Assembly (NCBI GenBank): GCA_973895155.1
Contig: OZ316893.1
Coordinates: 8,619,839-8,683,838, forward strand
Direction: 5' to 3'
Source of the DNA: Marsupella aquatica
Lineage: Eukaryota > Plantae > Marchantiophyta
DNA length: 64,000 bases
Shown: positions 10,231 through 42,667 of the stretch, one piece after another
Layout: the number at the start of each line of letters is the position of its first letter
Position numbering within the stretch: the first letter of the stretch is position 1
Notes under the pieces: model-generated
Seen by the model: only the letters and a program-made list of their open reading frames with translations
Databases searched by the model: none
What the model was told of the DNA's origin: nothing
Made by a program: the position numbers and the translations under genes

Positions 10231-13010
10231 ACATGAAAGCAAGAGTACAGGCACGCCGACTTATCTTGATTGACAATGCTGGTTTATCATATTAAACTAA
10301 ACTGAAATTTACTGACATGCCACTTTCTCATGATGTTGGTTTGTCATCTTAAATTAAACTGAGATCTACTACCATGCCACGCTGCCCTCATGCATCAACT
10401 CCTCTCCCTCCTGCCAATCTATGTGACACCCACTCGGTGGGACTACTCCCCAAAGTTGTCTGTTCACTAGATTTCAGAGAACTTTTGCAGGCGGGCTAGC
10501 TCACAGTTCTACTGTCTCTGAAACTTTTCAGGGATTTCTATACAGTGGTTTCGGAACAATCACAGAATTCCAACTCGACTGCTAATTGCCGACAGTTGCT
10601 GGTCCTGACAACACCCACTCGATGCGATTACTTCCAAGGTGTTCCTATTCAAAACATATATTTCGACAAAAGTTCACCAGCGCGGTTGCTGAACTCTCTA
10701 CTTCCTCTCTCTGAGAAATTTGAGGAACTTCTATAGAGGCGTTTGATAGATACAAAGTATTCTTACGTGACTGCCAAGGCAATTGATGAGCACAATGATA
10801 ACAGGAGGGGGAGGCAATGGTGGTAGAGAAGTGGTTTTACAAGACCTTGGGGCCACTTTGAGCCACTTTCAGTGTTGTTTTACCAAAGCTCATCTATCCC
10901 CATTTAACATTCTAAAGATAGACTTGTACTGGGGATAAAAGATAAAAGTTAACAAAGAGAGTTTGGAATCAGTTTATGGCCCCCAATTGTAGCTAATTGC
11001 AAATGATGCTAAAATATTTTGTTAGGAGACAGGTTGGGGATCCACTGCACCTAAAAGCCACAGAGTTCTTTGGCTAGGGCCCTTCTTGCTCTGACAAGAG
11101 AAGATCTCATGAGAGGCCCACTTTTAATGTAGAGACTCAAAATAGAAAGGGACCAAGCAGCCAAACTTGGAGTACTAAAATCTATGACAAAAAATGTGCT
11201 CCACGTAATTAAAATTTGGACGGTTCACTCCTTTTCATGTAGGATCACAAATAGTTTGGAACATAACAGCCCCCAACGTCTTGTAAAGTGATCAGCAACT
11301 GTATTTCCCGAATGAATGGCCTTGATCACATCATTCTAGGAGACCTTGAAATTTCCCCCAATGGTCTGTAAATCCATCGCTAGCAACTCTATCCAAGCCA
11401 TTGCTGGCAAGTCCAGAAATTAAGAACAGGAGGTCGATCAGGATGTTAGATAACCCCATGTGGTGTGCGTTAAAAGTTTGGCTTACTTACTAATAAAAAA
11501 GAAATACTCTAGTGGCAATTAGGGATTATAGCATGTTCATCCTACTACATGCCTATTTTGACTTATCTAAAAGAGTTTATTTCATTAGTTTACTAAAAAC
11601 AAGTATTGAAAGAATGATTATAGGAAAATTAATGAAAAAACTATGTACCTTTTTAAAAGTGAGAAAAGTACATGTGCATTAATTTCTAGGTACTAGTCAA
11701 TGTACTTATATAAGTACAACACTTTATGATTCAAAGAGCATGAGCTGAACTTTGTTTAAAAAAAAAATTCTGCTCTATTTTGGCTCTTTATTTAGGTGAC
11801 ACCTGTTCATGAATAAACCAGGAACAATGTAAATAACCAATTGAATATAAGGTGCACTCATCAATGAATAGTGTACTAGTTGCTTGGTTGAAGGGTCCAA
11901 CTTCTCATGCAAGTAAGAAATATGCCCCTGAAAATGTTTTTAAAAATGTTTTGAAAATTATAGGGGACCTAATAAAAACTAAGGAAATTAAAAAAGTTAA
12001 AAGGGTTGCCAAAATGACTAAATTGTAAAGAATACATGGGTGAAACATCTACTAGCTGGGGCAAATTAACATAAAAATACATTTTAATCAAATTGAATGA
12101 GACAAGATAGCCAAAGAGTGTCCCACCATATAATAGCCTCGAATATAGGAAAGTGACAGTGACATGACAGTGAATTGAAGCCATAATGGATCTGCAACTT
12201 TACCAAAATATTAGAATGGACTTTTGCAACCTGGATGAATTGTCCATACTTAGGGAAACCCTTGCTTTCTCTCATTTTTGTACGCATTACACAGATGAGT
12301 AAAATGTTATAAGAAAATGAGACAAAGTCATCCTAGAAATTTAATGTACAATATGATTGTCAATTCTAGATGAAAATTTCCCACATTAGGCTCATTGGAA
12401 AGATCTCTCCAGGTTTTTTCTGACAAATCCCAGTATTTGGATTCAACTGTACATTCAGGGAGATATTATTGGGGCTCGTTGGAAAGATGTTTCCAAGTTT
12501 TTTCTAACAAACCCGGAAATTCAGAATTCAACTGTACATTCAGGGAGATATTATTGAATAATTATCAAAGTTAGGTGCTCAAAAGTTTTGGAAGTGCAAC
12601 TTAGCAAGGATAGTGAAATATTATGGTCAGACTAATCTCACAATAATTCATAAAAACTACTGTGTAGATATTGATTTGCTGGAAAGATCTTTACAAGCCA
12701 CTCCTAACGAACACAAGAAGTCAGAGCAGATTCACTTGGATATCAGGTCACACATTGAAGTTCAAACTCTGTAGTTGAGAACTTTATGAAATTAAACTAT
12801 ATGCGTGTCCATGAGTGAGAACTTTATGGAAAGTGTATGGGTGTCAGTAAGTGAAGTGGAGGACTCATGAATCCATGGGAGTATCGTTTTGTGGCATAGC
12901 AGTAAACTAAAATATATGTCGTGGTCACTGTCCAGATCTTCTTAGTTCGTTATTGTGCTCGTGTGTTCTAAGTTTGCGGAAAGCTTGAATTACCTGCGGC
13001 TAATGCGTTC

Positions 13011-13036
13011 TACGGTGTTTGAAATGTTGCGGGGAG
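13011..13036 (+). repeat. Left TIR of the giant element
   Basis: TACGGTGTTTGAAATGTTGCGGGGAG; patchy inverted similarity (AAAAAG...GAGAGAAAATAT) continues to ~13071. Confidence 0.85.
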
Positions 13037-13999: not shown

Positions 14000-15565
14000 G
14001 AACCACCAAAGTCAGGACCAATTGCGATCACAAGGTCGGTCATGCTGTGTCTCTTAAAAAATACACAAAGAAACTATCAGCATTTATTATTTGGCAATTT
14101 CTTTCAAAGGGGTCCAGACTAGAGTAAATACCAACACTGTTTAGAAATACAAACAACTTGAACACATTTGGGTATCGCTCTATGGTGTAAATACACAAAG
14201 AAAACATGACGATTTGTTTCTCAGCATTTTATTAAGACAATGGTCCACAGCTAGGGTAAATGGGAAGAGCACAACAAAAATGCAAAGGACTTGAACTGCA
14301 CCACCACACAATTGGCCAAAGAAATGTCAAACTGACAGCAAAGTGGGAGCAAATTTGGAATCACCGAGGCCCACTAAATCTAGGGTGTAAAAAGTTATGT
14401 TAATTTTCTTCTTGACATTTTTTTGAAAGAAAGATCCAAAGCTAAGGTAAATGGGAAGCTCATATTAACCAAAATACAAATGACTTTCTCCGCTACACAA
14501 CTGACTTATGAAAAATGAAACCAATAAAGTGAGAACACATTTCAAATCACAATATCAGGCTTAGCCTTAGGGGTAAATACACAAAGAAATCATGTGAATT
14601 TGTTTCTTGGCATTTTTCTTAGACAAGGCTCCAAAGTTAAGTGGGGTAAATGGAAGGATCATCACCAAAATACAAAGAACGTGAACAAACTTGCTCCCTC
14701 ACATAGCTAACTAAGGAAAAATGAAATCAACGAAGGGAGAACTGATTTTGATTCACATTATGAGGCTCAGCATGAGGTGTAAATGCAAAAAAAAAACCAT
14801 AAGCATTTGTTTCTTGGCATTTTTCTATGACAAAGGCCCAAAGTCAAGTAGGGTAAATGGGAGAACCATAACACAAATACCAAGGACTTAAATAAGCGAG
14901 CTCCATCCCAAGGAAAATGTGCAACCAGCAAAATAAAAGTGGGTTTGAGATCACCAAACCAGACTCAATCAAAGGTGTAAATAAATGGAGAAATTATGTG
15001 AATTTGTATCTTGACATTTCTAACAAGGCTCCAAAGCTAGGGTAAATGGGAAGATCAAAATGAAAAATAATACAAAGGATAAAAACAAACTTGTTCCCCC
15101 ACACAACTGACTAAAGAACAAAAATGAAAAGCAACAATTTTGATTCACAATATGAGGCTCAGCCTAAGGTTTAAATACAAAAACAAATAATGAACATTTG
15201 TGTTTTGGCATTTCCCTAATCTGACAAGAGTCCAAAGTCAAATAGGGTAAATTATAGGAGAACTATAACACAATTAACAAGGACTTGAACAAACTCACTC
15301 CATTCCATGAGTTGGCAAGAAAATCTGCAACCAGCAAAATGAGATGTGGATTTGGAATCACAGGACCAGGCTCAATCAAGAATGTAAATAAATGGAGAAA
15401 TTAGGTGGATTTGTATTTTGACATTTACTTGAAACAAGGTTCCAAAGGTAGGGTAAATGAGAGCATCATAACCAAATTACAAAGGAGTTGAACAAACTTG
15501 CTCCCTCACACAAATGGCTAAGGAAAAATGAAACCAACAAAGTGAGCAGATATTTGATCACAATA
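14000..15565 (+). repeat. Degenerate ~190-206-bp tandem array, part 1 (~8 units)
   Basis: Anchor AGGGTAAATGG...AAATACAAAGGA...AACTTGCTCC...ATTTGTTTCTTGGCATTTT recurs near 14255, 14446, 14645, 14851, 15040, 15245, 15451. Confidence 0.85.
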
Positions 15566-16206
15566 TAATTAGTCTGAGCATATAAACCCCAATTTAAGGA
15601 ATACTGAAGTATTAGATTAATTCCAACTTTATCTAAATATTATTAGTTAATGAATAATCAACCTCTTTAACATTTGGTGGGATAGTCAAAAACTTCAAAT
15701 GTTTTGTTGCAAGATCTTTATAACAATGCATCACTAAATGACATCAAGTACCTCTTGATCCATGCACAAATTCTTAATTAAACTGTCATTCATTGTTTCA
15801 ATTGTCTATTTAATTACTACAGGGTTGAATACAAAAAAGATTGACAATCATAGTACCACCCTTTAATTAGTTAGTTCTATTGCTTTGACTCAATCAGGCA
15901 TGGAACCATATAAAATCAGAAATCATTGAAAGTTGTGTTCACTTGAAGGTGTAACTATAATTATTATTTATTAATAGGATTGTTGTATATTACAATGTCT
16001 ACTCGACATTCATTTGAATGTCAATAATATCATGCCTTAATATCACCAAACTAAGGCCCCACTAACTAATATTATATCTTAAATAAACTAACCAACTAAC
16101 TAACTTAGACAATTATAAGACTTGTCTAAACTTGAGTTCTCTGGCTACTACTATTCTGAGCTGCCTTTAATTAAACTGTATGCTAAACTACCAGCTTCAT
16201 TACTGT

Positions 16207-17325
16207 CTAGGATTTGTCACTTGCTATGCATGTCAAGAGATAGTCTCTTGCCTTGGCAACAACATTCTTTGGAATTCCAACCAGCCCTGTCACTGGTCCT
16301 TTGCGTGCGTTGAAACACCACAAGGCAGAGGAAACATCTATTGTCTCAGCTTCCTCATATATTGGAGCTGGATCACGTTCCCATTTCTTATCCCAAGAAT
16401 CTACCCACCGCTCTCTTGGCTGCCAGTCTGATTGACCACGTTGCTTCTTTGCCATAAATGGTCTAAACCACTCAATGCCACATACATGAGTAAGAAAGTT
16501 TTGTTCATTCACTGGTCCTTCTACCACATCTGTAAAAACTAACCCCATATGGACAGGATAAACATCCAGGTCTGAGTCGTCCGACCGTACCAACACATAA
16601 CAGCCCTTCACAACATCAACCCTAGGGTTAAAACTCTCAGGAGGTTTATCTTTTGCTGGTCCCACATAATCCAGTGTTGCCTCCAACTCACATGCCACAT
16701 TTCGATATTCTAGTGGAACGTGCTCTCTCCATATTGATAAAGGCCAAAACCCGTATTCCAAGTTGTGTGCACCTTCAGGTTCATATTGCACCTGCTCACC
16801 CTATAGAGTATCTACAATGTCATTCCAATAATTGATGAGAGTTGTCCAACGTCGCTTTGGTTCTTCCTCGTTTGTTCGCTTTAGAATAAACTCAAAGAAT
16901 GACACATGCTTCTTCAACCCTGTCAGCACTTCAGGAAGCATTTTCAGCTCCATCATTGGTAGCCTTTTGGGCACCCCAATTGGGATGTGAGGACTTTTGT
17001 CATCGTTCCATGACCACATTTCAATACCTTCCTTGGGTAACCGTCCCTGATCAGTTGACTTCATTTTGTATTGGAAGCATGGCATACTATCGTGACGAAC
17101 ATAGAACCTAAACAGCCCAGGTGGGTTTTAAATGCCCCACCAATGCCTCAGGGCCCTTCAACATGAACGGAGCTAAGTAGCTTTTGAAATCCGGGACCTC
17201 CTGTAGAAAATGTGGGACTGCATTGGGTGTCCTTGCTCTCATGAACAAGGACATTAACTCACGCAATGAGTAAGCACAAATAAATTTTGAGGATTTGTGT
17301 CTTGGCCTTTTCTTAAAATAACGGT
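16207..17325 (-). pseudogene. C-terminal fragment of a Sola/DUF7869-like transposase
   Basis: Collinear minus-strand ORFs 17108-17395, 16801-17085 and 16207-16791 (SLRELMSLF..TP....LQEVPDFKSYL....LVGH....MPCFQYK) resemble the region following the GHT..D motif in such proteins; 5' end truncated at the tandem array. Confidence 0.5.
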
Positions 17326-18565
17326 CAAAGTTAGGGTTAAATGGGAAGACCATGACAAGTATACGAAGGACTTGGACCGACTTAGTGCACCACATAACTG
17401 GCCAAGAAAATGCTGAACCAGCAAAGTGAGAGTGGATTTGGAATGACCCAAGCCAGGCTCAGTCTACTAAGGGTGTAAATACTCAACAAAATTATGGGGA
17501 TTTGTATCTTGGGATTTTTCTCAATCAAGGTCTGAAGGTAGGGTAAATGAGAAGATCATATCCAAAATACAAAGGATGAGAACAAACTTGATCCACCACA
17601 CAACTGACCAAGAAAATGTCAAACCAACAATGTGAAAGGTAGATTATGAATGAAAATGCCATGCTTAGTCCAGGGTGTGAACTTGTGACAAAATTATGAG
17701 GATTTTACGCTTGGCATTTTGAGACAAGGGCCTAAAGGACAATAAGCTCTCCTGGAGCAAAATATAGAAATGACTTGAATACTCTTCCTCCACTACAGAA
17801 GTGACTTAAAAAAGGTGAAACCAACAAAGTGAAAGCTTGTCCAATGACAACAATCATTGTAAATGGAGGGTGTACAACATAAACAAGTTATGAGGATCTG
17901 GTTTCTTCAGACAAGCTAGGTTGGGTCTAAAGCTAGGGTCACTGAGAATAAATAACAAAAATACAACTTAGGACAATAAAGAAACTAGCCCCACCACACA
18001 AGTGAGCAAAGAAAGATGGAACCCACAAAGTGAGAGCAAAGTTGGAATCACCAGGTCAAGCTTGGTCCTGGGCTTAGTCTAGGGTGTAAATACACATTAC
18101 ATTAATGAAGATTTATTTCTTGACATTGTCCAAGTCAAGGGTCCAAAGGTAGGGTAAATGGGACTACCATGACAAAAAATACAAAGGTAGATCACGAACT
18201 TGCTCCACCACCACCATTAGGAAAGATTCAACCTTCAAAGTGTAGGTGGATTTTGAATCACAATATTGGGCTCAGTCTATGCTATAAATACACAACAAAA
18301 TATTGAGGATTTGTTCTTGGCATTTTTTTGAGACAAGCTAGTTAGGGTCCAAAGTTAGGGTAAATAGGAGGACCATTATAACAAAATACAAAGGACTTGA
18401 ATCAACTTGCCCCACCACAACTAGCCAAGGAAATTTCAAACCAACAATGAGAGAGTGGAATTGGAATCAAATACCAGGCATGCTTAGTCTTGGATGCAAA
18501 TTTATGAAAAAAAATCAAGGATTTAATTATTGGCATTTTCAAACATGGGTCCGAAGCTAGGTTAA
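17325..18565 (+). repeat. Degenerate ~200-bp tandem array, part 2 (~6-7 units), same family as 14000-15565
   Basis: Same anchor recurs near 17334, 17541, 17936, 18152, 18358, 18560. Confidence 0.85.
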
Positions 18566-18721
18566 ATACTAGGATGAGAGCAAAATTATGGGCTCAAAAC
18601 ATGAACAAGTATCTCTTAAGCCAATAGACTAGAAAATAACTTCTTTGAATATTGCTACAGCCTCAAGAAGAAGTGTTTGTGTCACTGGTATACTATTACA
18701 TTACCTCACATATTGTGTCAG

Positions 18722-20379
18722 TCATATAATCTGTAATGTTTGTTGCAAGGATCTTAAGGCCCATAATCTACCATCTGACAAATTAGGTAGCCCTAATTCA
18801 TTTTGTACATAGTCCTCCAAGTCCAATGAAGCGTCCATACTATTTTGACACTCTATAGAAAGAAGAAGATGCATTCACAATTTGTCTTTTGCAGTTGTGA
18901 CTGTCACTTGGTTCCTTTCATATGCAATATCACGAATGTATTGTAGATTCTGCAAAAGAAATAAAACATGAATAAGGGCATATAAACAATAGTATTTCTT
19001 ACATCATCATTTCATAATTCACATGAACATTAATAATAATACAAAACAATGCTTACTTCATCATTCAAATCGTTTATGCGATCTTCAAAATTTCCACGAT
19101 TATTGTTGTGATTCCAATAATCAATTCCCATTGGATTGATGATGTCATCTTCTTGTTCGATATCCACCTGAGCTTCTTCGGCATAAGGTGGAGGCTGAAT
19201 AATTCTAGCTTCTCTTTCTCGTGATTGAAATGCAATGCAAATTCTGGAATATGTGATGGTCTCAACATACCTCCAGTCCGCACAGCTCTCACAGTATGTG
19301 CATTCCATGTTAAAACCACATCATTTACAGCCTCTTGCAGTAAAGGAAGAATCACAGTAACCATACAATATCTATGAAGTGGGATATCAATTTGTAAAAA
19401 TCCTTCCACACATGATAAGTCATATAAAGTCTTCTTGAAGTGAGTAGTTCCAAAATGCCTCAATTCTCTGCCAAAACATATGATAGGACACAAATATAAG
19501 TACCTGCACAAAATTGATGTCAAATTTACAGAATTTCCAAGCTACAATCGATGACATGAAATATGAAATGAACCACTCTATATGTTCTTGTTAATAAAAA
19601 ACATTACCTGATTATGAACAGAAGACCGCGTGCGAAAACAATTTGTATTTGGTCTTGCTCTTTCAAGGTTTTTTCTTAGTACCAAAACATGCTCTGTTGC
19701 ATAATCAGAATGAATCATCAATGGATGACCAAATCTAAGTATGGCTGTCTTATATCCCACATATAGAGTCTGCGCTTTCTTGTTCAATGCCACATGCATC
19801 CATGGAACAAAGTGTGTAGCCCCATCAATTGCACCATGAATTCTGAGTCCCCGTTGCGTCAATTTATCATATGCTGCATTCAATTTCCAAACAATCTATT
19901 AGTATTGAGGATCTATTCTAAAGTTAACTTCAATATAAAAGCAGGAAAAATTTAGAAGAGACATAGATATTCTACTTACAATCCATATGCCACAGATGCA
20001 TTGGCTCAATTACATCATAAAATCTCCTTATGATGCATCTTCGTGCCCTTCCTTCAAGTACACCAGGAAGTAATGTGTCCAAAGCATTTCTGACAAGTGC
20101 TAGTGAGATTTTATAACCAGCCCTTTTTAAACGTGCTCTAACAAAACGTATTCCCCAATCTTCAGCATATCCATGGATTGGTACAATCTCGGTAATAAGA
20201 GAGCAAACATCTTCTAAAGTATATCGGGGATATATTCTATGCTCAATATCAAAGTTTTTGAGGCATTTCCATAGAGTCACTCTATGTACACCAAGTGCAT
20301 CTGCACATTCATTCATAGTGTACCCTAGGTCGAGAGCTCGTTTTACATCTGTATACTGTTGAAAATCTGGATCATTCAT
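18722..20379 (-). pseudogene. HTH + DDE integrase-core transposase (IS3EU-type), spliced, frameshifted
   Basis: N-terminal HTH (CADALGVHRVTLWK); spliced core LWHMD-SYDKL...IHGAIDGA...HSD...SVHNQ-RIEAFW...WNAH; GT-AG introns 19979-19874, 19607-19468 and 19056-~18950; frameshift near 19445; true 5' end may lie further upstream. Confidence 0.85.
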
Positions 20380-20823
20380 ATTGATTGTCCAGCGTGGGTT
20401 GAGTATAGATTATACTCCACAGTTTCATCAACTAACAATTTTAACACCTTCAACCATATACAAATATAAATAACAGTAGTCACTCAATTTTTGTTTTCTA
20501 CAGCAATGGACTATTGCTCTTGTAAGCTTGGCCCCAACGTTGCCTGTTCATAAATAATTGTTGATGATTCCCAATTTGGAAGCAGATGACATTTTCAAAA
20601 TTTTCATTGGCTTTCTTGAACCTATTAAAAACTCACAAGTCATATTACAGCCACAAGCACCAATACCAATGAACAAAAATTCTATAACAAGAAGATAACT
20701 AAAAACTTTAGCATGAGGATATATAGTACACCATTATAACCAAATCCACTATAGTAATAAACAAAAAATAGACCAAAAGAAAACCCGCGTAGCTACTCTC
20801 AGTGTATCACAAAATTTATTTAA

Positions 20824-23297
20824 TTACTTTCACTTTGAAACTCATAAGCATTGCCAAGTTTTTGGTTTACGGCAATTCCAACCTCGGGGGGTTGACTATC
20901 AAAAATCTTAGGAACCACGTGCAATCCAAAATAGGTATTTTTGGCAGATTTTAACTAAATTTTTAAAAAGCGTAGGAGGCAAAAGAAGGTATTATAAACT
21001 CATGTTTATAGAATATTCTTTAATATATACCTTTTATAAAGTAAAATAGGTTATTAATATTGAAAATAGAGAATATTCTTGGAATATTTTCTTTATAAAA
21101 TAGGTCTATTTATATTAGGCTAGGATCGCACGTGGTACCCCAAAATATACACTTAGTTAACCCCCCAAGATTCCAACTACATATACTGGTTTCATTGGTG
21201 GACTTCTATACGATGTAGCATGAGGATCTTGACCCCAAACAAAAAACAAATCTCCATCTAAAATTGGAATTTTAATTCCATATTTTAGCATCACTAAATC
21301 TCCACCTCTACTTTCATTCGATGGATTACATGCCAAGAAGTAAACTCGCTTTCATCTACATCTGTATGAACTTCATTGCAATAGTCCTTTGTGATGAATA
21401 AAGGATATGCAGGAATGGCTTTTTTCATGAGTTCAGGCTTTGAAAAACAAGCCAAAAGCTCACTGCTAAGTTCCATCATTGGAGGCATAATCTCAATAAA
21501 ACTCTCCACCACTGGCCAGAAGTGTTCACAGAAAATAACAAAAATAATTTCAAACAGTAATTGATGTGCACATTGCTCATAGAGCAATTCTAACTGAACC
21601 ACAGTAGGATCCCGTGTTTGTGATATCTTCAACTTGTTATGGTAGAAGCTCACAAAATGATTACCTTTTCTTTCTTGCTAGTTCACTAATGGGCCAATTG
21701 CCCTCATGACATTTTTCAATGCAGATCGTGTATCTGACCTCTTCATTGTATATTTATCATTCCATATTTCTTCCACAAACAATTGAACAAAAGATCTATC
21801 TTTCTCTGGAACACCTCCTTTCATCCGACCTCCAATGATTTCATCACCATCCATCCAAATCTCCACCCTTGATGAAATATTCATCTTGTAGAAAGGCTCG
21901 ATCATCGGTCTCCAGACTATAATTCGATTTGCCCAAGGTGTTTCCAAATCTTCCTCAATTAAATAGTTGGAGGAAAATCTACCAACAAAATTGGAAGATT
22001 TCTTGGTGAAATTTGTAAACTTTATACGGGATTTTCCAAATTTCTGGTAATGATCTTTCTTACTTCTTAGATACATGTCTGGATCAGTTCAGAACTTTCG
22101 TATCCGATCTGATAAGCCTCTCCCAACAGATGATAGATTGTAACGATTCATTATCATATGATTGATGCTACTCCATTCTTTTTCATCAAACCAAGCAATC
22201 CAACTTCCATCTCTTCTTAAACTGTAAAAACCATCAAAAAAGGTTGACTGATTTCCTTTTAGGTTTCCCTCGGATAATATCTGTACTCCATATTCAAAAA
22301 GATAGTATTCGCCCAACAACCACTTACATAGAATTTTTGTATGAAAATGTCCTGCTTTCCCACCAGCTTTTTGAGCAAGCTTGATGATTTCACAGAAATA
22401 AAGAGATGCTGCAGAGAACCTCTCGGAAGATACCTTCACTGTTTTTTTGCCCTATAAAAGAAAAAAGATTTTCATCTTAAAATTGCAGTAAAAATAACAA
22501 ATATAAACCTATGATGAGTATCAAATATGCTAAACATTTTGGACACAAAACACAGCCATAGAATATAGACTGTATCGGCCACCGGATAATGAGGTTTCTT
22601 CCACTATACGGGAAGTCACGCCCCCAGTAGGTCAACTATCAATATATTCACCTGACAATGAATTGGCCTCACAAAATGTGTACTGGTTTCAAATATATTC
22701 CAAACATTTTCTGATCTCAAAGTATATTAGTAGTGAGAAAATATCTTACCTTTAGAATTGGAGTCTCTCTTTTTTTTGTTTGTTTTTTTTGTCTTTCAGT
22801 CCTTCCATATTGACTAACATGTAAAATGATTTAAATTCTCAATGATTTGTCAAACTATGTGCAATAGAAAGACTATCACCTAGGAAAAAGCTTAAATTTA
22901 GAATGAATTCTTGTCATCCCAGTTCAAAAATTATGTTGGACGGCAAGCAGCCACAAAGCTAGCATTAGTCCACCATCCAAAATGTGAATCGCAAAGATTT
23001 CTCCTATGGTAGTATGTAACATACCTAAAAATTGAAGATACGGTGTATCAGGTAGGGTGTCATCCAGTGCACAAACTTAACAATGGAAGACTTGATTTTA
23101 GAGTCAACGCTGCATCTGTAAAAACGACTTGTAACGGACAGGGCATAATGAGCTCATGGACAAACAAACTGAAATAACACAACCTAATCCAAAGAGATAA
23201 ATTTAGAAAGCCTTATTTCACTTACAAATCTTCCTCCGTTGAAGATTGTGAATAGAACATCCACATCAACAATGGTGGTGGTCTTGTCAAACGCCAT
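20824..23297 (-). pseudogene. TET/JBP-like 2OG-Fe(II) dioxygenase gene, decayed
   Basis: In-frame ORFs 22089-22439, 21678-22076 and 21294-21653 separated by TGA/TAG; C-terminus reconstructs as FITKDYCNEVHTDVDE...RGGDLVMLKYGIKIPILDGDLFFVWGQDPHATSY...VVGIAVNQKL after a frameshift and removal of the MITE; putative upstream exons from ATG 23297. Confidence 0.65.
20883..21169. mobile_element. MITE family A, copy 1 (287 bp), inserted in the dioxygenase coding sequence
   Basis: Termini CTCGGGGGGTTGACTA / TAGTTAACCCCCCAAG; internal inverted ACCACGTGC..TCC; 8-bp TSD ATTCCAAC at 20875-20882 and 21170-21177. Confidence 0.9.
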
Positions 23298-23354: not shown

Positions 23355-24680
23355 AGATTTTCTAGGGCAGCATTCTCATGATGAAATGCACTCAAACTTT
23401 GCCAGAAAATGACACCTAAAAAAAGATGTGAGTTGCTCAAATTTTGTAGGGCAACATGTGCTGCACAGAATGCACTCAAACTTTGCCCCATCTTAGAAGA
23501 AAGAGTCACAACTGTGCTGGCAAAGTTTCAGGGAAAACCAAGCTCAGAATCAAAACTGAAAAAACAAAATGATCAAGAGATACGAACTCGATAAAATTTG
23601 ACCTAAAAAAACTTTGAGTTGCTCCAATTTTGTAGGGCAACATTTGCTGCACATAATGCACTCAAACTTTGCCAGATCTTAGAAGAAAGAGTCACAACCG
23701 TGCTGGCAAAGTTTTAGGGAAAACCAAGCTCAGGATCGAAACTGAAAAAACAAAACGATCAAGAGATACGAACTCGATAAAATTTGACCTGAAAAAAGCT
23801 GCGAGTTGCTCGAATTTTGTAGGGCAACATTTGCTGCACAGAATGCACTCAAACTTTGCCAGATCTTAGAAGAAAGAGTCACAACCGTGTTGGCAAAGTT
23901 TCAGGGAAAACCAAGCTCATAATCAAAACTGAAAAAACAAAATGATCAAGAGATACGAACTCGATAAAATTTGACCTAAAAAAAGCTGCGAGTTGCTTGA
24001 ATTTTGTAGGGCAACATTTGCTGCACAAAATGCACTCAAACGTTGCCAGATCTTAGAAGAAAGAGTCACAACCGTGCTCGCAAAGTTTCAGGGAAAACCG
24101 AGCTCAGAATCAAAACTGAAAAAACAAAACGATCAAGAGATACAAACTTGATAAAATTTGACCTAAAAAAAGCTGCGAGTTGCTTGAATTTTGTAGGGCA
24201 ACATTTGCTACACAAAATGCACTCAAACTTTGCCAGATTTTAGAAGAAAGAGTCACAACCGTGCTGGCAAAGTTTCAGGGAAAACCGAGCTCAAAATCAA
24301 AACTGAAAAAACAAAACGATCAAGAGATACAAACTCGTTAAAATTTGACCTAAAGAAAATTGCGAGTTGCTTGAATTTTGTAGGGCAGCATTTGCTGCAC
24401 AGAATGCACTCAAACTTGCCAGATTTTAGAAGAAAGAGTCACGACTGTGTTGGCAAAGTTTCAGGGAAAACCGAGCTCATAATCAAAATTGAAAAAACAA
24501 AATGATCAAGAGATATGAAATCGACAAAATTTACCTTATAAAAAGCTGCGAGTTGCTCAAATTTTGTAGGGCAACATTTGCTGCATGGAATGCACTCCAA
24601 ACTTTGCCAGATTTTGGAAGAAAGAGTCACGACTATGTTGGCAAAGTTTCAGGGAAACCAAGCTTAGAATCAAAATTTGA
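23355..24680 (+). repeat. 187-bp tandem array (~7 well-conserved units)
   Basis: TTTTGTAGGGCA(A/G)CA recurs at ~23442, 23628, 23815, 24002, 24189, 24376, 24562; explains the repetitive ORFs 23409-24864. Confidence 0.95.
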
Positions 24681-25174
24681 CTTAAGAAACACTACGACTC
24701 CTGAATTTTATACGACTACATGTGCATTGATAAAATTGACTAAAAGTTTCCAAGATATTGAGCAAATAATGCCAACTCTTCTGGAAAATATTCAAGAACA
24801 ACTGATCTTAGCATCCATATTGAAAAATATGGAGCATGGATCATTAAAATCCAGTAAACCATAAAAAACCAAACACAAATTGAAGGCAAAAAATAGACTT
24901 TAGAAGTATGTAGTAAAGTCATGTTTAGTTGGCATTATGGAATATGACCAAAAAATGAGAGCTTTAGCTTGCATTTAGAGGGGTTGTTTCCCTAATGGTT
25001 TGGCAAATAAAACCTTATTATATTGAAAGGCTTGAGAGATTTTATTTTTTCTTGATTTAGTGAAAGTAATGGACAATCTTACTCAAGAGGTGATCCGGAT
25101 CTTGTGGTGGGCATTATGCTCCAAGAATGTCCTGAAAAATACAAATGGAAAACTTGCAAAGGGCATTAAGAAAG

Positions 25175-25455
25175 CTCAGGCGGTTGACTATCAACAATCT
25201 TAAGAACCACGTGCGATCCAAAATAGGTATTTTTCATATAAATTAGCTAAATTTTTTAAAAGCGTAGGAAGTAAAAGAAGGTATTATAAACCTATATTTG
25301 TAGAATATTCTCTAATATATACCTTTTATAAAGTAAAATAGGTCATTAGTATTGAAAATAGAGAATATTTTTAAAATATTCCTATTATAAAATAGGTGTG
25401 TTTATATTAGGCTAGGATCACACGTGGTACCCCAAAATATACACTAACCCCCGAG
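25175..25455. mobile_element. MITE family A, copy 2 (281 bp)
   Basis: Collinear with 20883-21169; termini CTC...GAG; 8-bp TSD TAAGAAAG at 25167-25174 and 25456-25463. Confidence 0.9.
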
Positions 25456-26283
25456 TAAGAAAGGAACATTTTGGATGGATCTTACCTTGAATCAAAAGCA
25501 CGTGAACTGTGATTAGATAGAGAAGACTCCACTAAAGACCTGCATAAATTCTGAATAAACGAGCGACCACGAAATAATTCTACTTTCCTTTTGAGCCCTG
25601 GTACACTATCTAGCTTTAGGATGTTACATGGCTGATAGATTAATTAGCTCTGGTGAAAAAACAATGAAACTGCCCCCAAGGCCTTGTATCCTAACAAAGT
25701 GAGCAATACATTCATTGAGAAAGACAAGTTTGAAATACAAAAGGAGGGAAGAAGTTGAAGGACGAAGAATAGTGCTTGGAGGAATTCTCAAGTTGTAACT
25801 TTGTTATGCATGTGGACCTAGAAAAGCGATGGATATAACACTAAATGTTGTGATTAGATATAGTGTTGGTATACAAATAATTCAAACACTATTTCACAAG
25901 TGTACATGAAAAAATGTGTCATGTGTCGTCTAAATTAGTTTGCATGAAATGGGTGTAAGGTATATTGATGTCTTGCAACTAAAGTCTACTTCTGCTATTT
26001 ATATGACTTCCTGAGGACTCACCTACCATGGTCACATGAGTGACTTTTTGACTAGTCACTAACATGTCTTTATGTAATCTATAAAAATCTTGGGATTAAA
26101 TGTCTTGTAATTAGCATGACACCTATAGGCCACTAACAACTGAAGTATTGCCAGGTCACTTATAATTCAAAAAGAGATATTTTCTCTTAGTGTCATTTTA
26201 GCCAATGGTTCCCCATTGCTTCCTTGCTTCCCAGCTTGCATGTTTTACTAGTTAATCCATTATAATATTTCCAAGGGTAACTA

Positions 26284-28345
26284 CACTCTTTACAGTATGT
26301 AGTCTCACAGACTCTAATTACTGTGAGGTTATATTTGAGGTAAGTGACGGTAATTAGGGTGTGTGACACTAATATAGTATGACACTAATTGTGGTCACAA
26401 GTCAAATAGTGTCACACATACTTAAAGTTAAAAACAAAGAATGGACAATAGTTAAAATTTGCTTATAAAAAAGCTAAAAATGTGCACAATATTTGATTAC
26501 AATTTACAAAACTTACTACTCATTCAAACATTGAGAAAACTTCAGAAACTTATAACTCCTTTCATATAGCATGCTCATCCTGGAACATGCTTGCTCATCC
26601 TGGAACATGCTTTACATTTTGTCTTGTAGTGATATTAAGTGGACAAAATTAAAGAGTAAGACTAGAATACATATTAAATGTGAATGAAATCAAATAATAT
26701 AAATAAAGTACATACAATAAAAGCACATAGTGACCAATGGAAAGTACAATTTCATTACACAAAGTTGCTACGAGTTGTGCACAATGAAATCAAATAATAT
26801 CAATAAAGCTCATGCAATAAAAGCACATAGTGACCAATGGAAAGTACAATTCTATTACACAAAGATACTATGAGTTGTGCACTTATTTCAGTGTGTCTTA
26901 TTAATGACTCTTATTCAATAAAAACCATAAACTTAGGAAAGAAAGACACAAGGGGAGCTTAAGACAAGATGTGCTGACATTTCTTAGAATCATTCCTCTC
27001 ACTCATGAGTATACTTAAAAGCGGTAGAAAATGAAACCCTTAGTTTTCTCTCTAGGACTTAACGAAGTTTACAAATCATACAAATTAAGGGGGCTGCCAA
27101 AATAAATTCAAAACACTATAGAATACCAAAAATTTAAAGGGGTCCAAAAATGAATTAAAAGTCTATGTGATACAAAGGATGCCCCTTGTTAAGGTACATT
27201 CAAATAAAAATTCATGATACACAAATATGAATAAGACAAAACATGAGAGTTGGATTCACCATATAGCAGCTTCAAAAATTTAGCTTCAGAAACTTATAAC
27301 TCCTTTCATATACTACTCAAATATTGAGCAAACTTCAGAAATTTATAACTCCTCCTCACATTTGCAGTTTGGGGTACTCTTGAAACACATTGAGCAAACA
27401 AGATCTCTTTGATTCACTTTAATCAACTATGAATAGTAGATGTTGTCTCACATAAGCTACAAACTAACATTTTTTCACTCTCCTACAATCTGTCCCATGT
27501 GTCTCATCCTTGCAAGACATTGTACAGCCCCAAGAGAAGAGGGTTGAGCTGGCTCTTCACCTGGGTCACCAATATCAGGAGCCACTTCAACAGTAGCATC
27601 ACTGTCAAGGCCAACTCGACTCCTTTAAAACTTCACTCGATATTTCGTTATGATATTCTGAAGCTCAGGTGTAAGTTGATTTTCAGACTATAAACCATTG
27701 ACATTTAGAGACAAACTGGTGTTTATCATTGAATTTTGTGCATAAGACATGTCATGTCTGTCAACAGAACTGTTCACCTCAGCTACAAAGTCCCTTGCCA
27801 ATGTCAAAAATCAATGTTTGCCTTCATGTTTGCCTGGATTTATCAATTTCCCAGATGTGCCCTGTGTCCCAATCCCCACATTTTTTAAGTCTTCATTTAC
27901 CATTTTTTGAAATGCAACGAGGATAACCCAAACGAGATGCAAACTAATTACCAGTGACATTTTCGTATAGTTGTGATTCTCTTTCCCTTGTGCTAGCAAA
28001 TCCAACTATGACGGCCAATCCATTCCCACCATGTTATAAATCTATCAACCTCCTTTCACAAAGACTAACAAGATAAAACACAAAGAAACTTTCTAAGAAA
28101 TACACACAAAGAGATATTGTTGGTAGTTTGGATAACTTTGGAGTGAGAGCAGTTTAGGGTAATAACAGTGTCACCTCTAATTATCAGTATTTTTCAATAT
28201 ATAATTTATTTTTCAAAATTAAGGGTGGCGGTATATAGTGTCACTTGGCTGAAAATCAAGAGCTACCCCTAATTAGTGTGTGTGCGTGTGACACTATTTG
28301 TTAGTGACACTAATTGTTTTGTGACACTAAATACTGTAAAGAGTG
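26284..28345. mobile_element. Non-autonomous CACT-ended (CMC/EnSpm-like) element, ~2.06 kb
   Basis: TIR CACTCTTTACAGTAT(G/T)TAGT(C/G)TCACA at both ends; GTGACACTAAT subterminal repeats; flanked by TA on both sides (C-TA...TA-G). Confidence 0.8.
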
Positions 28346-31289: not shown

Positions 31290-31713
31290 TGTTGGGTATT
31301 TACTCTTACGTCTAGGTTAGGTATGACGTGGTTGGTACAACAACGTGGGTTGGTACAACTACGTGGTTAGGTACAACTACGTGATTAGGTACAACTATGT
31401 GGTTAGGTACAACTACGTGATTAGGTACAACTATGTGGTTAGGTACAACTAAGTTGCACACTATATCATAAGAGGCATGTGTGCTTGAACAGGTCCCAGA
31501 ACCAAGGCTCATTGTTATGGAGCCACTTGAGAGATAGGGAGAGCTTACACTGTGGAGACTCGGTATAGCCGACGGGCTTAGAGTTCAGTAAAGCTCTCTT
31601 GTGTGTTCCCGTGGACGTAGCCTCAAGGAGGTGAACCACGTATCTCTTGTGTCGACTATTGTGCGTTGGATGGTTCATGGGCTTGCCGTTGCGATCGTCG
31701 TCTATGCTCAACA
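31290..31713 (+). repeat. 5' LTR (424 bp)
   Basis: By eye, identical to 36607-37030 except one C/T (GGACGTAG vs GGATGTAG); internal 18-bp tandem repeats. Confidence 0.97.
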
Positions 31714-31715
31714 AT

Positions 31716-31727
31716 TGGTATCAGAGC
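31716..31727 (+). other. Primer-binding site, tRNA-iMet type
   Basis: TGGTATCAGAGC two bases after the 5' LTR. Confidence 0.93.
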
Positions 31728-32137
31728 ATGCTTGGGAGGTGACGTGTGTTCGTGACGGGATTTCATGACGGTTTTTCCAGCGTTGAGTGTTGGTGGATTA
31801 TCCAGAGTTCCATCGCATGGAACTTGGAGTTTATGGGCTCAACGGATAGATCAGGGCAAGAACTTTCTAACGGTGTGAAGAAATCATTGAACGGAGCTCG
31901 TGGTGCAGAGAGATCTAAGTTTTCGTTGTTCTGGATTTTGTGAAGAAAGTTGGCAATCGACTCGGAGGGAGAAGCGTCAAGTGTTTTGACTCAACGGAGA
32001 GATTGAGGCAAGACGATTGTTTTTGAGTCCGGGATTGGCTCTTTGATGCAAAGAGGAAGGCTAAGCAAAATCAATTACCTTGTTGGACTTGGTGACGGCA
32101 CCAAGTGCAATTGATCAACATTCGTTGTTGACAAGAC

Positions 32138-33142
32138 GTGGAACTTGAAGCACGAGGATCACCGCGGAGGTTTCAGGGGCAGAGAGAGGAGCAGGAGGAA
32201 GAGCACGTGACACCGATACCATCACCGGTGCGGCGTGTGGTGGAGGAAGCAGTACTACTACCGGAGCTCACGGTAAAGAAGAAGATGGGGACTTTCAAGC
32301 TTGGGGGACCCAAGTATGAAGTGACAAAGTATGATGGGCGCTCTGACTACTTGCTATGGGAGAAGCAGGTGAAGGGAGTGCTTTATGCGTCAGGGATGGG
32401 CCAACTGCTGAGCCCTCGTGAAGACGATGTTGATGAGAAACAATGGGACCGCATGCAGGAGCAGGGAGTGTGGTGTGTTACACTCTATCTCATGCCTCCC
32501 ATCATCAAGCAGTTAGGTGCACATAAGGATTGCATGTCCTTGTTTGCGGAATTGCAGAGCAAGTATCACCGCAAGGAGTTGTCGAACCGGCTCTACACTT
32601 CCTACAAACTGATGAGTTTCAGGATGAAGGAATCTGGTACGAAGTTGCAAGACCATGTGGATGCTTTCAACGACATGGTCGTTGACTTGGAAAACCTTGG
32701 GGAGACTTTGAATGATGAGACGAAGGCTCTGCAGCTTCTTAGTTCATTGCCTCCATCTTACTAGTCCCTATCACGAGTGTTGTTGCATCGTGATAGGGAT
32801 ACCATTTCATACAATGACGTGGTAAGTTCTCTGCTTAGTGATGATCTTCAGCAGAAGATGCACATCACGTCACAGCCTTCATCATCTGGAGCTGCCCTCA
32901 ATGTTAACCGTGGGAGGAGTATGCAGCGACCAACTGGGGACCGTAGAACCCAATTTAGATCTAAATCCAGATCTAAGTCCAAGGGTAAATCCCCTCAGAG
33001 GAGGCAGGTGACATGTTGGAAGTGCAACCAAGTTGGACACTTCAAGCGAGACTGTAAGGGAAAGGCAGCGGAAACTTCATCGGCAAATGTGGCTAGGGCT
33101 GATGGAGAAGCTGATTTACTCAATGATGAGTATGTTTTATGA
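32138..33142 (+). pseudogene. gag: Copia Gag with CCHC zinc knuckle, interrupted by an in-frame TAG at 32762-32764
   Basis: KYDGRSDYLLW...LLSSLPPSY*...CWKCNQVGHFKRDC; both ORF pieces are in the same frame. Confidence 0.9.
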
Positions 33143-36100
33143 AGCCGGGGGTATGCCCTGTGCACGTCATCTAGGAGAGCAGATGATGTGTGGATTCTTG
33201 ATTGTGCTTGCTCTTTTCATATTTGTTACATTCGTGAGTTTTTCAGTTCTTACTCTGTTTCAAACGGTTCAGTTCTGATGAGAAATGATCACTCCTGTCA
33301 AATTGAGGGAATTGGGTCTGTGAAGATTCAAATGTTTGATGGCGCTGTGCGCACAGTGTCCGGAGTCAGGTATGTACCTGGCATGCGTAAGAATCTGATT
33401 TCACTCGGTGTGTTGGATTCAAATGGTCATCAATGGAGCGTTATTGATGGTGAACTTCAAGTCAGGTCGGGAGAGACAGTGATTTTGAAGGGGAGTAGAC
33501 AAAAGAATTTGTATGTATTACAGGGCAATACTGTATGTGGAGAGGCCAATGTAACCAAGTCTCACGAGGAGATGACTCAACTGTGGCATTCACGGCTAGG
33601 CCACATGAGTGAGAAGGGTTTGGCTATCTTACGGAAGAATGGACTCATTTCTGATTTGCAATCTTGTAAATTAGAGTTTTGTGAGCATTGCATTCTTGGA
33701 AAGCAGCATCGTCGTGCTTTTGGTGTTGGAACTCATCGTTCCAAAGCGGTTCTTGAGTACATACATAGTGACGTGTGGGGTCCATCCCCGACTCCCTCAC
33801 ACTCTGGAAAGTTGTACTATGTATCATTTATTGATGATTACTCAAGATTTGTGTGGATTTATTTCATGACGCATAAGTCTGATGTCTTGTCCATTTTTAA
33901 GAAGTGGAAGGCCCAGGTGGAGAATCAGACTGGAAACACGATCAAGTGTTTGGATACAAGGGTGAAGAGTCTGAGGTCAGACAACGGCGGGGAGTACACT
34001 TCAATGGAATTTGAAGAGTACTGTTCAGAACAGGGGATAACTTGCCATCTCACCACAGTTTATACTCCGCAGCAGAATGGTGTCGCTGAGAGGCTCAATC
34101 GGACACTGTTGGAGCGGTCATGGAGTATGTTGAGCCAATCAGGTTTACCACAAGAATTTTGGGCAGAAGCTGTCAATACCGCAGCTTATTTGGTAAATCT
34201 TTCTCCTTCTAGTGCTATCAATTTCAAAACGCCGTTTGAGATGCGCTATAAGCGGCAAGCAGACTATCATGGCTTGGTAATTTTTGGAAGTGATGCATAT
34301 GCTCTCACACCAAAGCAGAATAGGACCAAGTTGGATCCTACCTCCAGGAAATGTGTTTTTCTTGGGTACCAGAGTGGTGTGAAAGCCTATAGGCTATGGG
34401 ATCCTATTGCCTGTAAGCTCGTTGTCAGTAGGGATGTTTCCTTCAATGAATCCAGATTATTGAAGGAGGGGGAGAATACTCAGGTCTCCCGTACTGACAA
34501 AGGAAAATCTCCTATCCCGGATCTCGTTGAGGGGGAGATTGGTTATGAGGTGCATGACCGGAGAGAAGGAGTTGCTCCAATTATGGAGCTGGTTCCTATG
34601 CCAGAGGAACCAGAGGAGTTTGTTGATGCTGGTGAGCAACAAGTGGATGCTGTTGAGCTTCAAATTGTACCAGCACACGCAGATCAACCGGAGTCATCGG
34701 CTAGAAGAACATCTGGTCGCACTGTACGCGCTCCATCAAGGTATGGACAGTGGGTTGATTCATCTCAACTGCAAGAGGATGATTTTACAGCTGATGATGA
34801 GGGTGATGCGTTAATTTTGGAAGAAGGAGAACCTTCTTCATTTCATGAGGCAAGTGCTTCAAAAGAGAAGCAGAAGTGGACTGCAGCAATGCAAACGGAG
34901 ATGCAGTCACTAAAGGACAACAAAACTTGGGAGCTTGTTAAGCTGCCTAAGGGTCAGCAAGTGGTGGACAGCAAGTGGATTTACAAGCTGAAGGATAATT
35001 CCATAGGAGGTGGATCGAAGGTCTACAAGGCTAGATTGGTAGCAAAGGGATTCACACAAGAGAAAGGTGTGGATTACAATGAGGTCTTCTCACCAGTTGC
35101 TAAGTACTCTACAATACGACTATTGTGTGTACTTGTTGTAATGTTTGGTCTGCTCCTAGATCAGATGGATGTTGTCACAGCTTTCCTCTATGCCACATTG
35201 GAAGAGGTGATCTTCATGAGACAACCGCTAGGTTTTGTGAAGAGAGGACAAGAGGAATTGGTTTGCAAATTGCTGAAATCCTTGTATGGGTTGAAGCAGT
35301 CACCAAGACAGTGGAACAAGCGGTTTGACGATTGGATTCGGTCACAAGGTTTTCACAGAAGTGTATTTGACCCTTGTGTGTATTTGAAACCGGTGAAGAA
35401 TGTTGTCTTTGGGTTCATTGTTTTAGTACTTTATGTGGATGACATGCTAATTGCAGCCAAGGATAGGTCTGAGATTGTTAAGCTCAAGGCACTGCTTAGT
35501 GCAGAGTTTAAGATGAAGGACTTAGGGCCAGCTAAGAGGATTTTGGGTATGGAGATCACTAGGGACTTGGAGGCTGGCAAGCTATGGTTGACGCAGAGCA
35601 GTTATGCGAGGAAGGTAATTGCAAGGTTCAACATGGAGAATAGCAAGCCAGTAAGTACCCCGTTGGCTCCACACTTCAAGTTATCATCAGCGTTCTGTCC
35701 TACGGATGACACAGAGAAGGGGTTGATGTCAAAGGTTCCATATGACAAGGCAGTGGGGAGTCTCATGTATTTGATGACTTGCACTAGACCTGATCTTGCC
35801 ATGGCTATGGGCAAGGTGAGCAGGTACATGTCGAATCCAGGGAAGGTACACTGGGAAGCAGTGAAGTGGATTATCAGGTACTTGAAGGGTACCGTGGATC
35901 ATGGTCTTTTATTTGATGCGAATGCAAAGAATGCTAGATCATTGATTGGCTATGTAGATTCTGACTATGGACAAGATTTGGACCGAAGGAGATCAACAAC
36001 AGGATACGTGTTCACACTTGGCGGTGGATGCATAAGTTGGAGGTCTACTTTGCAGAAGTGTATTGCTCAGTCTACTACAGAAGCGGAGTATGTTGCAGCT

Positions 36101-36415
36101 GCGGAAGCAGCAAAGGAAGCGATTTGGTTGGATAGACTTATCACTGAAATGGGATTGCCACAGGGGAATGTGAAGCTCCATTGTGATAGTCAAAGTGCGC
36201 TCCACCTTGCTGTGAACCAGGTGATGGACAGCAGAGTGAAGCACATTGACGTCAGGTACCATTTTATCAGGCAGGCTGTGTCTGATAATTTGTTTGAGCT
36301 AGTCAAGATTGATGGTAAACTCAACCCGGCTAACGCATTTACCAAAGTGATTCCTTTGGAGAGTTTCTCTAGACACCGTGACGTATTGCAGGTTTTGCAA
36401 TTGCATCACAAGTAG
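33143..36415 (+). CDS. pol: Copia Pol (protease, integrase, reverse transcriptase, RNase H)
   Basis: WILDCACSFH, LWHSRLGH/CEHC, HSDVWGP, LRSDNGGEY, PQQNGVAER, LYVDDML, YVDSD, STTEAEY, KHIDVRYH; same frame as gag, after a TGA. Confidence 0.95.
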   Translation, partial: SRGYALCTSSRRADDVWILDCACSFHICYIREFFSSYSVSNGSVLMRNDHSCQIEGIGSVKIQMFDGAVRTVSGVRYVPGMRKNLISLGVLDSNGHQWSVIDGELQVRSGETVILKGSRQKNLYVLQGNTVCGEANVTKSHEEMTQLWHSRLGHMSEKGLAILRKNGLISDLQSCKLEFCEHCILGKQHRRAFGVGTHRSKAVLEYIHSDVWGPSPTPSHSGKLYYVSFIDDYSRFVWIYFMTHKSDVLSIFKKWKAQVENQTGNTIKCLDTRVKSLRSDNGGEYTSMEFEEYCSEQGITCHLTTVYTPQQNGVAERLNRTLLERSWSMLSQSGLPQEFWAEAVNTAAYLVNLSPSSAINFKTPFEMRYKRQADYHGLVIFGSDAYALTPKQNRTKLDPTSRKCVFLGYQSGVKAYRLWDPIACKLVVSRDVSFNESRLLKEGENTQVSRTDKGKSPIPDLVEGEIGYEVHDRREGVAPIMELVPMPEEPEEFVDAGEQQVDAVELQIVPAHADQPESSARRTSGRTVRAPSRYGQWVDSSQLQEDDFTADDEGDALILEEGEPSSFHEASASKEKQKWTAAMQTEMQSLKDNKTWELVKLPKGQQVVDSKWIYKLKDNSIGGGSKVYKARLVAKGFTQEKGVDYNEVFSPVAKYSTIRLLCVLVVMFGLLLDQMDVVTAFLYATLEEVIFMRQPLGFVKRGQEELVCKLLKSLYGLKQSPRQWNKRFDDWIRSQGFHRSVFDPCVYLKPVKNVVFGFIVLVLYVDDMLIAAKDRSEIVKLKALLSAEFKMKDLGPAKRILGMEITRDLEAGKLWLTQSSYARKVIARFNMENSKPVSTPLAPHFKLSSAFCPTDDTEKGLMSKVPYDKAVGSLMYLMTCTRPDLAMAMGKVSRYMSNPGKVHWEAVKWIIRYLKGTVDHGLLFDANAKNARSLIGYVDSDYGQDLDRRRSTTGYVFTLGGGCISWRSTLQKCIAQSTTEAEYVAAAEAAKEAIWLDRLITEMGLPQGNVKLHCDSQSALHLAVNQVMDSRVKHIDVRYHFIRQAVSDNLFELVKIDGKLNPANAFTKVIPLESFSRHRDVLQVLQLHHK

Positions 36416-36606
36416 AGTTTTCTTAAACAGTCATTGTAATTATTGATATATGCTCTTCCTCATTCCTATGTATTAGGCTACGGCTTAGTTCTGGTTTGCT
36501 CTAGTTAGAGAGGGAAACCGGTTTGGTTTCTGTCCAGAACTTCCCGCTGAGGGATCATATACATTGGCAGTATTACTCTCCCCTAGACCAGAGTCAAGGG
36601 GAAGAT

Positions 36607-37030
36607 TGTTGGGTATTTACTCTTACGTCTAGGTTAGGTATGACGTGGTTGGTACAACAACGTGGGTTGGTACAACTACGTGGTTAGGTACAACTACGTG
36701 ATTAGGTACAACTATGTGGTTAGGTACAACTACGTGATTAGGTACAACTATGTGGTTAGGTACAACTAAGTTGCACACTATATCATAAGAGGCATGTGTG
36801 CTTGAACAGGTCCCAGAACCAAGGCTCATTGTTATGGAGCCACTTGAGAGATAGGGAGAGCTTACACTGTGGAGACTCGGTATAGCCGACGGGCTTAGAG
36901 TTCAGTAAAGCTCTCTTGTGTGTTCCCGTGGATGTAGCCTCAAGGAGGTGAACCACGTATCTCTTGTGTCGACTATTGTGCGTTGGATGGTTCATGGGCT
37001 TGCCGTTGCGATCGTCGTCTATGCTCAACA
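36607..37030 (+). repeat. 3' LTR (424 bp)
   Basis: TGTTGGG...CTCAACA followed by the TSD GGGTG. Confidence 0.97.
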
Positions 37031-37344
37031 GGGTGAGCTCACACTAGGCAACGAACCCCTTCAGCTGGGGCAGAACAAGGTGGGTAAGGATTTTTGATGG
37101 AAATCCCCGCCATTGGATGCAGACATGTGGCATGATTTTGGTCGTCGGATGAGTATGAGTTAACCATAGGTGGTTAACTTAACCACTACTGCAAAAAGGT
37201 GGCATTCTAGTAAATAATCTAAAAACCATGGCAAGGTAGTAATTTTGCAAAAAAAGAGTGGCAAAATAGTAAATCTCAGTTCTTATAATATGTAGGCTTG
37301 AGTGGATGGTTGAATATTTTTAGAACTATTTTGTGATTGTACAG

Positions 37345-42641: not shown

Positions 42642-42667
42642 CTCCCCGCAACATTTCGAACACCGTA
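42642..42667 (-). repeat. Right TIR of the giant element
   Basis: CTCCCCGCAACATTTCGAACACCGTA, reverse complement of 13011-13036 with one mismatch. Confidence 0.85.

Follow-up and report, generated by a model that had tools for sequence, protein, structure and literature searches.

The window analysed here, a stretch of 64,000 nucleotides from contig OZ316893.1 of the liverwort Marsupella aquatica, contains a fully bounded transposable element of 29.7 kb that begins with TACGG, ends with CCGTA and is flanked by a 6-bp duplication. The duplication, located by a scan for ends, reads GCGTTC on the left (13005..13010) and GCATTC on the right (42668-42673), matching at five of six positions, with the one mismatch being a CG-to-CA change. 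The terminal inverted repeats, at 13011..13036 (plus strand, starting TACGG) and 42642..42667 (minus strand, ending CCGTA), agree at 25 of 26 nt, compared with 21 of 26 for the best of 100 shuffles; a weaker likeness between the two ends extends to about 60 nt, and contig depth drops beyond the right repeat. Inside the element, a decayed, multi-exon transposase gene (19077..20409, minus strand) encodes an N-terminal HTH and an rva_4 integrase core (PF24764, E 1e-10 and 0.0018), with the motifs HMD...RIHGAID...HSD...EH...SSVHNQ and a third acidic residue that falls in a broken stretch. It lies downstream of a TET-like dioxygenase gene, on the same strand. Because the ends, the 6-bp duplication and the integrase-related transposase all match published descriptions, the carrier is an IS3EU/GingerRoot DNA transposon. 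The earlier note had proposed that the dioxygenase gene was transposon cargo, and its position between 13011 and 42667 bears this out; the KDZ and Plavaka elements that it had in mind as context do not apply, since the adjacent transposase is of the rva_4 type and no KDZ or CMC-type transposase was found among the 22 long ORFs scanned in the window. The element is depleted in CpG (observed/expected 0.35-0.49), which fits 5-methylcytosine (5mC) as a pressure on it. In three public runs the internal contigs have ~3-8x the depth of the contig spanning the right junction; since depth does not equate to copy number, this can be taken only as a hint that several copies of the element exist.

The main exon of the TET-like gene (21345..22451, minus strand) encodes a helical N-terminal region followed by the dioxygenase domain. 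It is read in frame -3 from 22451 to about 21340, where it ends in ...NEVHTDVDESE, and it includes the codons of the HxDxD motif (21368-21354). Two in-frame stops, TGA at 22091-22089 and TAG at 21680-21678, interrupt it, and after a frameshift near 21340 the gene continues in frame -2 (21169..21351, minus strand) as ...GGDLVMLKYGIKIPILDGDLFFVWGQDPHATSY...VYVVGI as far as 21169, with the distal His codon, in HATSY, at 21222-21220. There, within the dioxygenase domain's final beta-strand, a MITE of 287 bp (20883..21169) severs the closing residues and stop codon (20820..20882, minus strand); beyond it the frame reads VGIAVNQKLGNAYEFQSES from 20882, with the stop codon at ~20822-20820. The window copy is thus a dead pseudogene. 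Upstream, 22452..23297 on the minus strand probably holds several small, decayed 5' exons and introns, judged by eye; contig depth there resembles that of the remaining gene, and three read-through pieces of this region gave no match in Pfam. An intact homologue of 479 aa, P0003, is 50% identical across 96% of the read-through piece, and its score (E 2.7e-117) argues that the reconstructed reading is not due to chance. When P0003 was used in tblastn, the same three pieces were recovered in order, at 22439-21339 (50%, 367 columns), 21339-21169 (53%) and 20882-20829 (61%), which shows that the read-through reconstruction is right. The earlier note had arrived at this protein by reading through two stops and a frameshift at ~21340 and by excising the MITE with one of its target-site copies; P0003 yields the same reading, including the C-terminus that starts at NEVHTDVDE.

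The MITE is flanked by two copies of ATTCCAAC, an 8-bp duplication, and a further MITE copy lies at 25172-25445. Sister contigs from all four public runs lack the MITE, with 20874 joined to 21170. Among the differences listed between window and sister contigs (40 of 766 substitutions and 12 of 132 indels), the TAG position encodes Trp in every contig that covers it, in three of the four runs (the fourth has no cover there), and three differences beside it restore residues of P0003 in the same covering contigs. Read on the plus strand, each of these four changes is a C-to-T in the window copy, and the majority form among the sister contigs has neither the TAG stop nor the MITE. Since its insertion, the window copy has gained C-to-T changes, stops, a frameshift and nested elements.

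The third gene (37314..39890, plus strand), on the strand opposite to the transposase, is also decayed and multi-exon, and its end resembles a HECT C-lobe: the PF00632 match (E 1.9e-4) is below the cut-off, all five PDB matches at E<=1 are HECT ligases, and the window copy has Ser at the position of the HECT catalytic Cys. No kinase was found among 17 ORF pieces, although in so decayed a region a kinase may have been lost. The sister contigs carry one extra base at 39592 in this gene. Besides the MITE, four nested insertions are skipped by sister contigs: a non-autonomous 2.06-kb insertion with 32-nt inverted ends (26282..28345, skipped in two of four runs), a non-autonomous insertion (29128-29990), a Copia LTR retrotransposon (31290..37030, plus strand, skipped in three of four runs) and a non-autonomous insertion of 0.8 kb (41375..42186, likewise three of four). 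With the MITE, the 2.06-kb insertion, the Copia element and the 0.8-kb insertion skipped, ~20.7 kb is left. The Copia element is young, its LTRs being identical over the first 326 nt, and it has a 1090-codon pol frame and 18-bp repeats in the LTR. Two repeat arrays flank the coding part on the minus strand: just upstream of the TET-like gene is a tandem repeat of 187 bp (23414..24675, 6.8 copies, 92% match), and downstream of the transposase is a degenerate array of ~200-bp units (14000..18600). Both are possible candidates for binding arrays of element proteins. The latter array is interrupted by a 1.7-kb segment (about 15584-17271) of far higher depth that sister contigs skip, and this segment contains a read-through frame of 306 codons (16210-17127, minus strand) with no Pfam match.

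P0003 is one of 19 relatives, the others being 15 from a representative library and three from a profile search; none of the 19 has an informative name. The first motif is covered by 11 relatives and by the window, and all 12 sequences have [YF]CxxxHxDxD there; the distal His, as H[GAS]T, follows 50-52 residues later in all six relatives that reach the end; the window keeps its own distal His. Binding of Fe(II) by HxD...H is established for the superfamily, and the triad, noted earlier from the window by itself, is conserved throughout the family: it is invariant although the five longest relatives are only 20-68% identical in pairwise comparison, and five relatives, of 319-479 aa, have an open frame through the domain. 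The 2OG-binding Arg, already reported as not obvious, is indeed missing: between positions +10 and +20 after the distal His, none of the six relatives has an Arg or a Lys. The window has a single Lys at +10, in a variable loop, and by sequence alone a basic residue is found at +5 in five of the six relatives and at +9 in three. The sequence of the last strand is Y[VM][VG][GCA]xx[VIL]N, with Tyr or a small residue at the Arg position. Since this absence extends to all six relatives, it characterizes the family as a whole and does not reflect damage to the window copy. The base-stacking aromatic (Y1902/F295/F416) likewise has no sequence counterpart in the six, with a register uncertain by one residue. 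An Arg does precede an M-x-[GA]-x-GP motif in nine of nine sequences, at a place that may be compared with the canonical N-terminal active-site Arg (R1261/R224/R244) and where the model has pLDDT <50. Pattern scans for close relatives in viral contigs, metagenome contigs, named phages and prokaryote genomes found none; the sole genome match (L001) was discarded because it sits within an oxidoreductase gene that is unrelated.

The fold was examined on a model of the relative P0013, which is 22% identical to P0003 and matches the window piece with E 3.3e-8. This AlphaFold model has a pTM of 0.57 and a mean pLDDT of 54, which rises to 59-82 in the strands of the barrel; the model of full-length P0003 has pLDDT 49 and its Foldseek matches are meaningless. 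Foldseek against the PDB placed only CcTet, CMD1 or NgTET1 chains at ranks 1-10, with CcTet first (E 6.9e-4 to 3e-2, 237-270 columns), followed by prolyl and lysyl hydroxylases aligned mostly over 91-118 columns. In a wide VIA search of 48,161 chains, NgTET1 came first (Z 13.0, rmsd 3.5, 184 aligned) and TET2 second (Z 12.0, rmsd 4.3, 209 aligned), followed by an AlkB homologue in third place (Z 11.7) and CMD1 in fifth (Z 11.4, rmsd 4.7, 229 aligned), while in the second-look list a Shewanella oxygenase tied for first (Z 13.2, 144 aligned). A phage JBP1/TET domain ranked third in a viral structure library, and in the ESM Atlas the nearest clusters were unnamed ones from Mucoromycota, which we do not take as evidence of gene transfer, followed by Tet_JBP and PF20515 clusters at 0.92-0.94. 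Profile evidence is thinner. PF20515 (Tet-like) matched weakly in four of 17 members (best E 0.0014), no TET model reached the Pfam cut-off (best 19.1 bits against 27 for PF20515, no match for PF12851), the window's own gene pieces had no Pfam match, profile searches of the PDB gave weak unrelated matches only, and phmmer with P0003 gave seven weak matches. Based on the P0013 model, the double-stranded beta-helix barrel is secure, assignment to the TET/JBP subfamily has good though not overwhelming support, and the product of the window gene is predicted to fold like TET/JBP dioxygenases, including their characteristic N-terminal extension. The earlier suggestion of such a fold is supported by the structural comparison; of the competing folds it had named, prolyl hydroxylases come after the TET chains in Foldseek, and AlkB trails NgTET1 by ~1.3 Z in VIA.

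The closest published arrangement is that of the fungal TET-bearing IS3EU elements, which, according to Kojima's 2025 study (PMC12730594), have TAYGG...CCRTA ends, a 6-bp duplication and an integrase-type transposase, with the TET gene flanked by the transposase on one side and, on the other, by a third gene of opposite orientation, an alpha-kinase. The marks that define IS3EU/GingerRoot also appear in PMC10045372 and PMC6839031. The element described here shares the ends, the duplication, the transposase type and the gene order, but it resides in a plant and not a fungus, its third gene is HECT-like instead of an alpha-kinase, it measures ~20.7 kb without the MITE and the three other insertions subtracted above, compared with 8-13 kb in the IS3EU rows examined, and the N-terminal region of its TET-like protein is long and helical. 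IS3EU is one of 11 fungal transposon lineages with published TET cargo. GingerRoot elements, which among plants are reported from bryophytes and lycophytes only, have similar TA...TA ends and a 6-bp duplication in Selaginella and mosses (Cerbin 2019, PMC6839031), and the printed transposase query shows, by eye, the same RIHGAID, SD...EH and SS.HNQ. In contrast, the reported GingerRoot cargo consists of host gene fragments, and the reported size is 3.9-12.9 kb with TIRs of 100-150 bp; the main text of PMC6839031 uses none of the terms TET, dioxygenase, HECT or ubiquitin. The arrangement is the one seen in fungal and algal TET-bearing transposons, and we do not assign the canonical TET class because the test for the canonical 2OG Arg failed.

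At the level of the protein, the best structural matches TET2, NgTET1 and CcTet share the Fe triad and an FCxxxHxD-like first motif, but they have a last-strand Arg and an aromatic residue that are missing from the family, and R1896 of TET2 and R289 of NgTET1 have been termed strictly conserved in 2OG binding. In Kojima's alignments, the iron triad HxD/E...H comprises the only residues marked as common to all TET/JBP types (PMC12730594). Most motifs are held in common with the PE type of Pezizomycetes and Agaricomycetes, compared by eye and unscored: NY[ACS] three residues ahead of the first His, a G-I-R-I strand and H[GA]TS after the distal His. PE-type proteins also lack the last-strand Arg, with Gln in its place in all 11 alignable of 14 rows, unlike the Tyr or small residue of the present family, and they have HxE where all 12 sequences here have HxD, as in some of the PU type. 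In the 13 PU-type rows of part 1 of the supplement, the position is Arg in eight, Lys in one and His in four, all of the latter from IS3EU (PMC12730594).

The reading that we favor, tentatively and at somewhat less than even chances, is that any intact sister copies would carry out 2OG-dependent oxidation of 5mC. The putative substrate, co-substrate and anti-silencing role are drawn by analogy from TET2, NgTET1, CcTet, CMD1 and Kojima's argument; the latter proposes an anti-silencing role for the fungal elements and describes itself as lacking experimental validation (PMC12730594). In such copies, HxD...H would bind Fe(II), 2-oxoglutarate would probably sit on a non-canonical anchor, and oxidation of the methyl group on 5-methylcytosine would loosen methylation-based silencing of the element. 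In a plant, replication could dilute out the oxidized base, or it could be taken out by DML glycosylases, enzymes that excise 5hmC (PMC10573277). The missing last-strand Arg weakens a plain 2OG reading, though it is not the mark of a dead enzyme, given the Gln that occupies this position in the PE rows.

An unlikely alternative, and the one that survives best, retains the fold and cargo role but has the chemistry of CMD1 of Chlamydomonas, with ascorbate as co-substrate and 5-glyceryl-methylcytosine, or an adduct like it, as the product made from 5mC. CMD1 has a TET-type fold with an HxD...H spacing of ~50 (H345/H397), lacks a usable basic residue in the last strand, as all six relatives do, and cannot use 2OG (PMC7854593). 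Also from the green lineage, it rides a DNA transposon, and other Chlamydomonas TET/JBP genes likewise lie in transposons (10.1101/2022.06.16.496473). It also gives the longest structural overlap in VIA (222-234 residues) and is the only dioxygenase among the P0003 phmmer matches (E 0.48). From its ascorbate pocket, made up of R244, H249, T337, W358, T399 and S414, the family has a Thr resembling T337 at His-8 in nine of 12 sequences and one resembling T399 at distal His+2 in six of six. Against this, the Trp that blocks 2OG, W358, has no counterpart at His+13 by simple count (none of 12), both Thr also occur, by eye, in the PU-type TETs that bear the Arg, and NgTET1 and TET2 score equal to or above CMD1 in VIA. 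Moreover, neither F416 nor R418 is matched by sequence, CMD1 has HxDxxD (D350) where the family has HxDxD, its element is a different one, and the structural identity is 12-14%.

It seems rather unlikely that the protein is a neutral passenger, captured and carried, or a non-catalytic DNA-binding protein that shields methylated DNA without turnover. The loss of the 2OG Arg and of base-recognition residues, the dead window copy and the frequency of non-functional gene fragments in GingerRoot elements (PMC6839031) could be explained in this way. However, neither the invariance of the three metal ligands over so wide a range of identity, nor the five relatives with open domains, nor the majority sister-contig form would be expected of such a protein, and the fungal PE type is also without the Arg. 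Less probable is an active dioxygenase directed at another target, such as thymine (5hmU), N6-methyladenine or RNA: JBP acts on T, CcTet, the top Foldseek match, acts on 6mA, and the cytosine-reading residues of TET2 and CMD1 are unmatched, but the CcTet determinants for 6mA are unmatched as well and the CpG depletion of the element points to 5mC. Finally, a double-stranded beta-helix enzyme of the AlkB or prolyl-hydroxylase type is very improbable, for although AlkB and PHD chains lie within ~1-1.5 Z of the TET chains in VIA and no TET profile passes the cut-off, the ten leading Foldseek matches are TET-family chains aligned over the whole domain, and Atlas, Pfam and motif comparison all lean toward TET-type families.

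TET cargo on transposons is published for fungi and Chlamydomonas. Literature searches, judged mostly from the titles listed, turned up no land-plant transposon reported to carry a TET/JBP gene, and the GingerRoot supplements, with their lists of captured fragments, may bear on this novelty. Surveys by the Aravind group may mention scattered TET/JBP genes in mosses. If the enzyme proved dead, or its host to have a described moss-type TET, the finding would shrink to a new host record. Otherwise, the arms-race strategy of TET cargo would be extended, likely to land plants, and a concrete protein can now be named. In reviews, plant demethylation is glycosylase-based and TETs are the animal route (PMC10573277, PMC11065753), and the reliance of further TET/JBP enzymes on other co-substrates is posed as an open question (PMC11065753), on which the family-wide loss of the 2OG Arg, as in the fungal PE-type TETs, bears. 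It is a speculative and quite improbable proposition that non-seed land plants carry a transposon-encoded TET/JBP lineage with a rebuilt pocket, working with ascorbate or another non-2OG partner and writing a modified cytosine, 5gmC-like or new. If true, land plants would have, besides the ROS1/DME glycosylases, an oxidative means of getting past 5mC silencing, and the lineage would be one candidate origin of the unexplained oxidized cytosines reported in plant DNA.

Four of the relatives, P0010, P0013, P0019 and P0020, form a second subfamily with open frames, ~20% identical to that of the window; its nearest Atlas clusters are unnamed proteins of Mucoromycota, which may represent an undescribed TET-like group. 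Outside the element, two long foldbacks occur at 2427-3411 and 5926-7079, with arms of up to 164 nt that are 90-100% complementary, and the first adjoins an 18/37-bp tandem array. Among the host genes of the right flank is one for a proteasome beta subunit (51952-53946, plus strand), an exon of which had a single match with E<=0.001 in a set of 177,635 PDB sequences. The matched chain, 7QVE_r, belongs to an entry cited in the plant 26S proteasome paper, so this one gene supports a green plant as host, and the plants known to have GingerRoot would point to a non-seed land plant more than to an angiosperm. The other host genes there are a frame at 47671-48006 (minus strand), which we take to be acylphosphatase-like, and an ABCG transporter (58016-62799, plus strand), whose exon did not discriminate between hosts.
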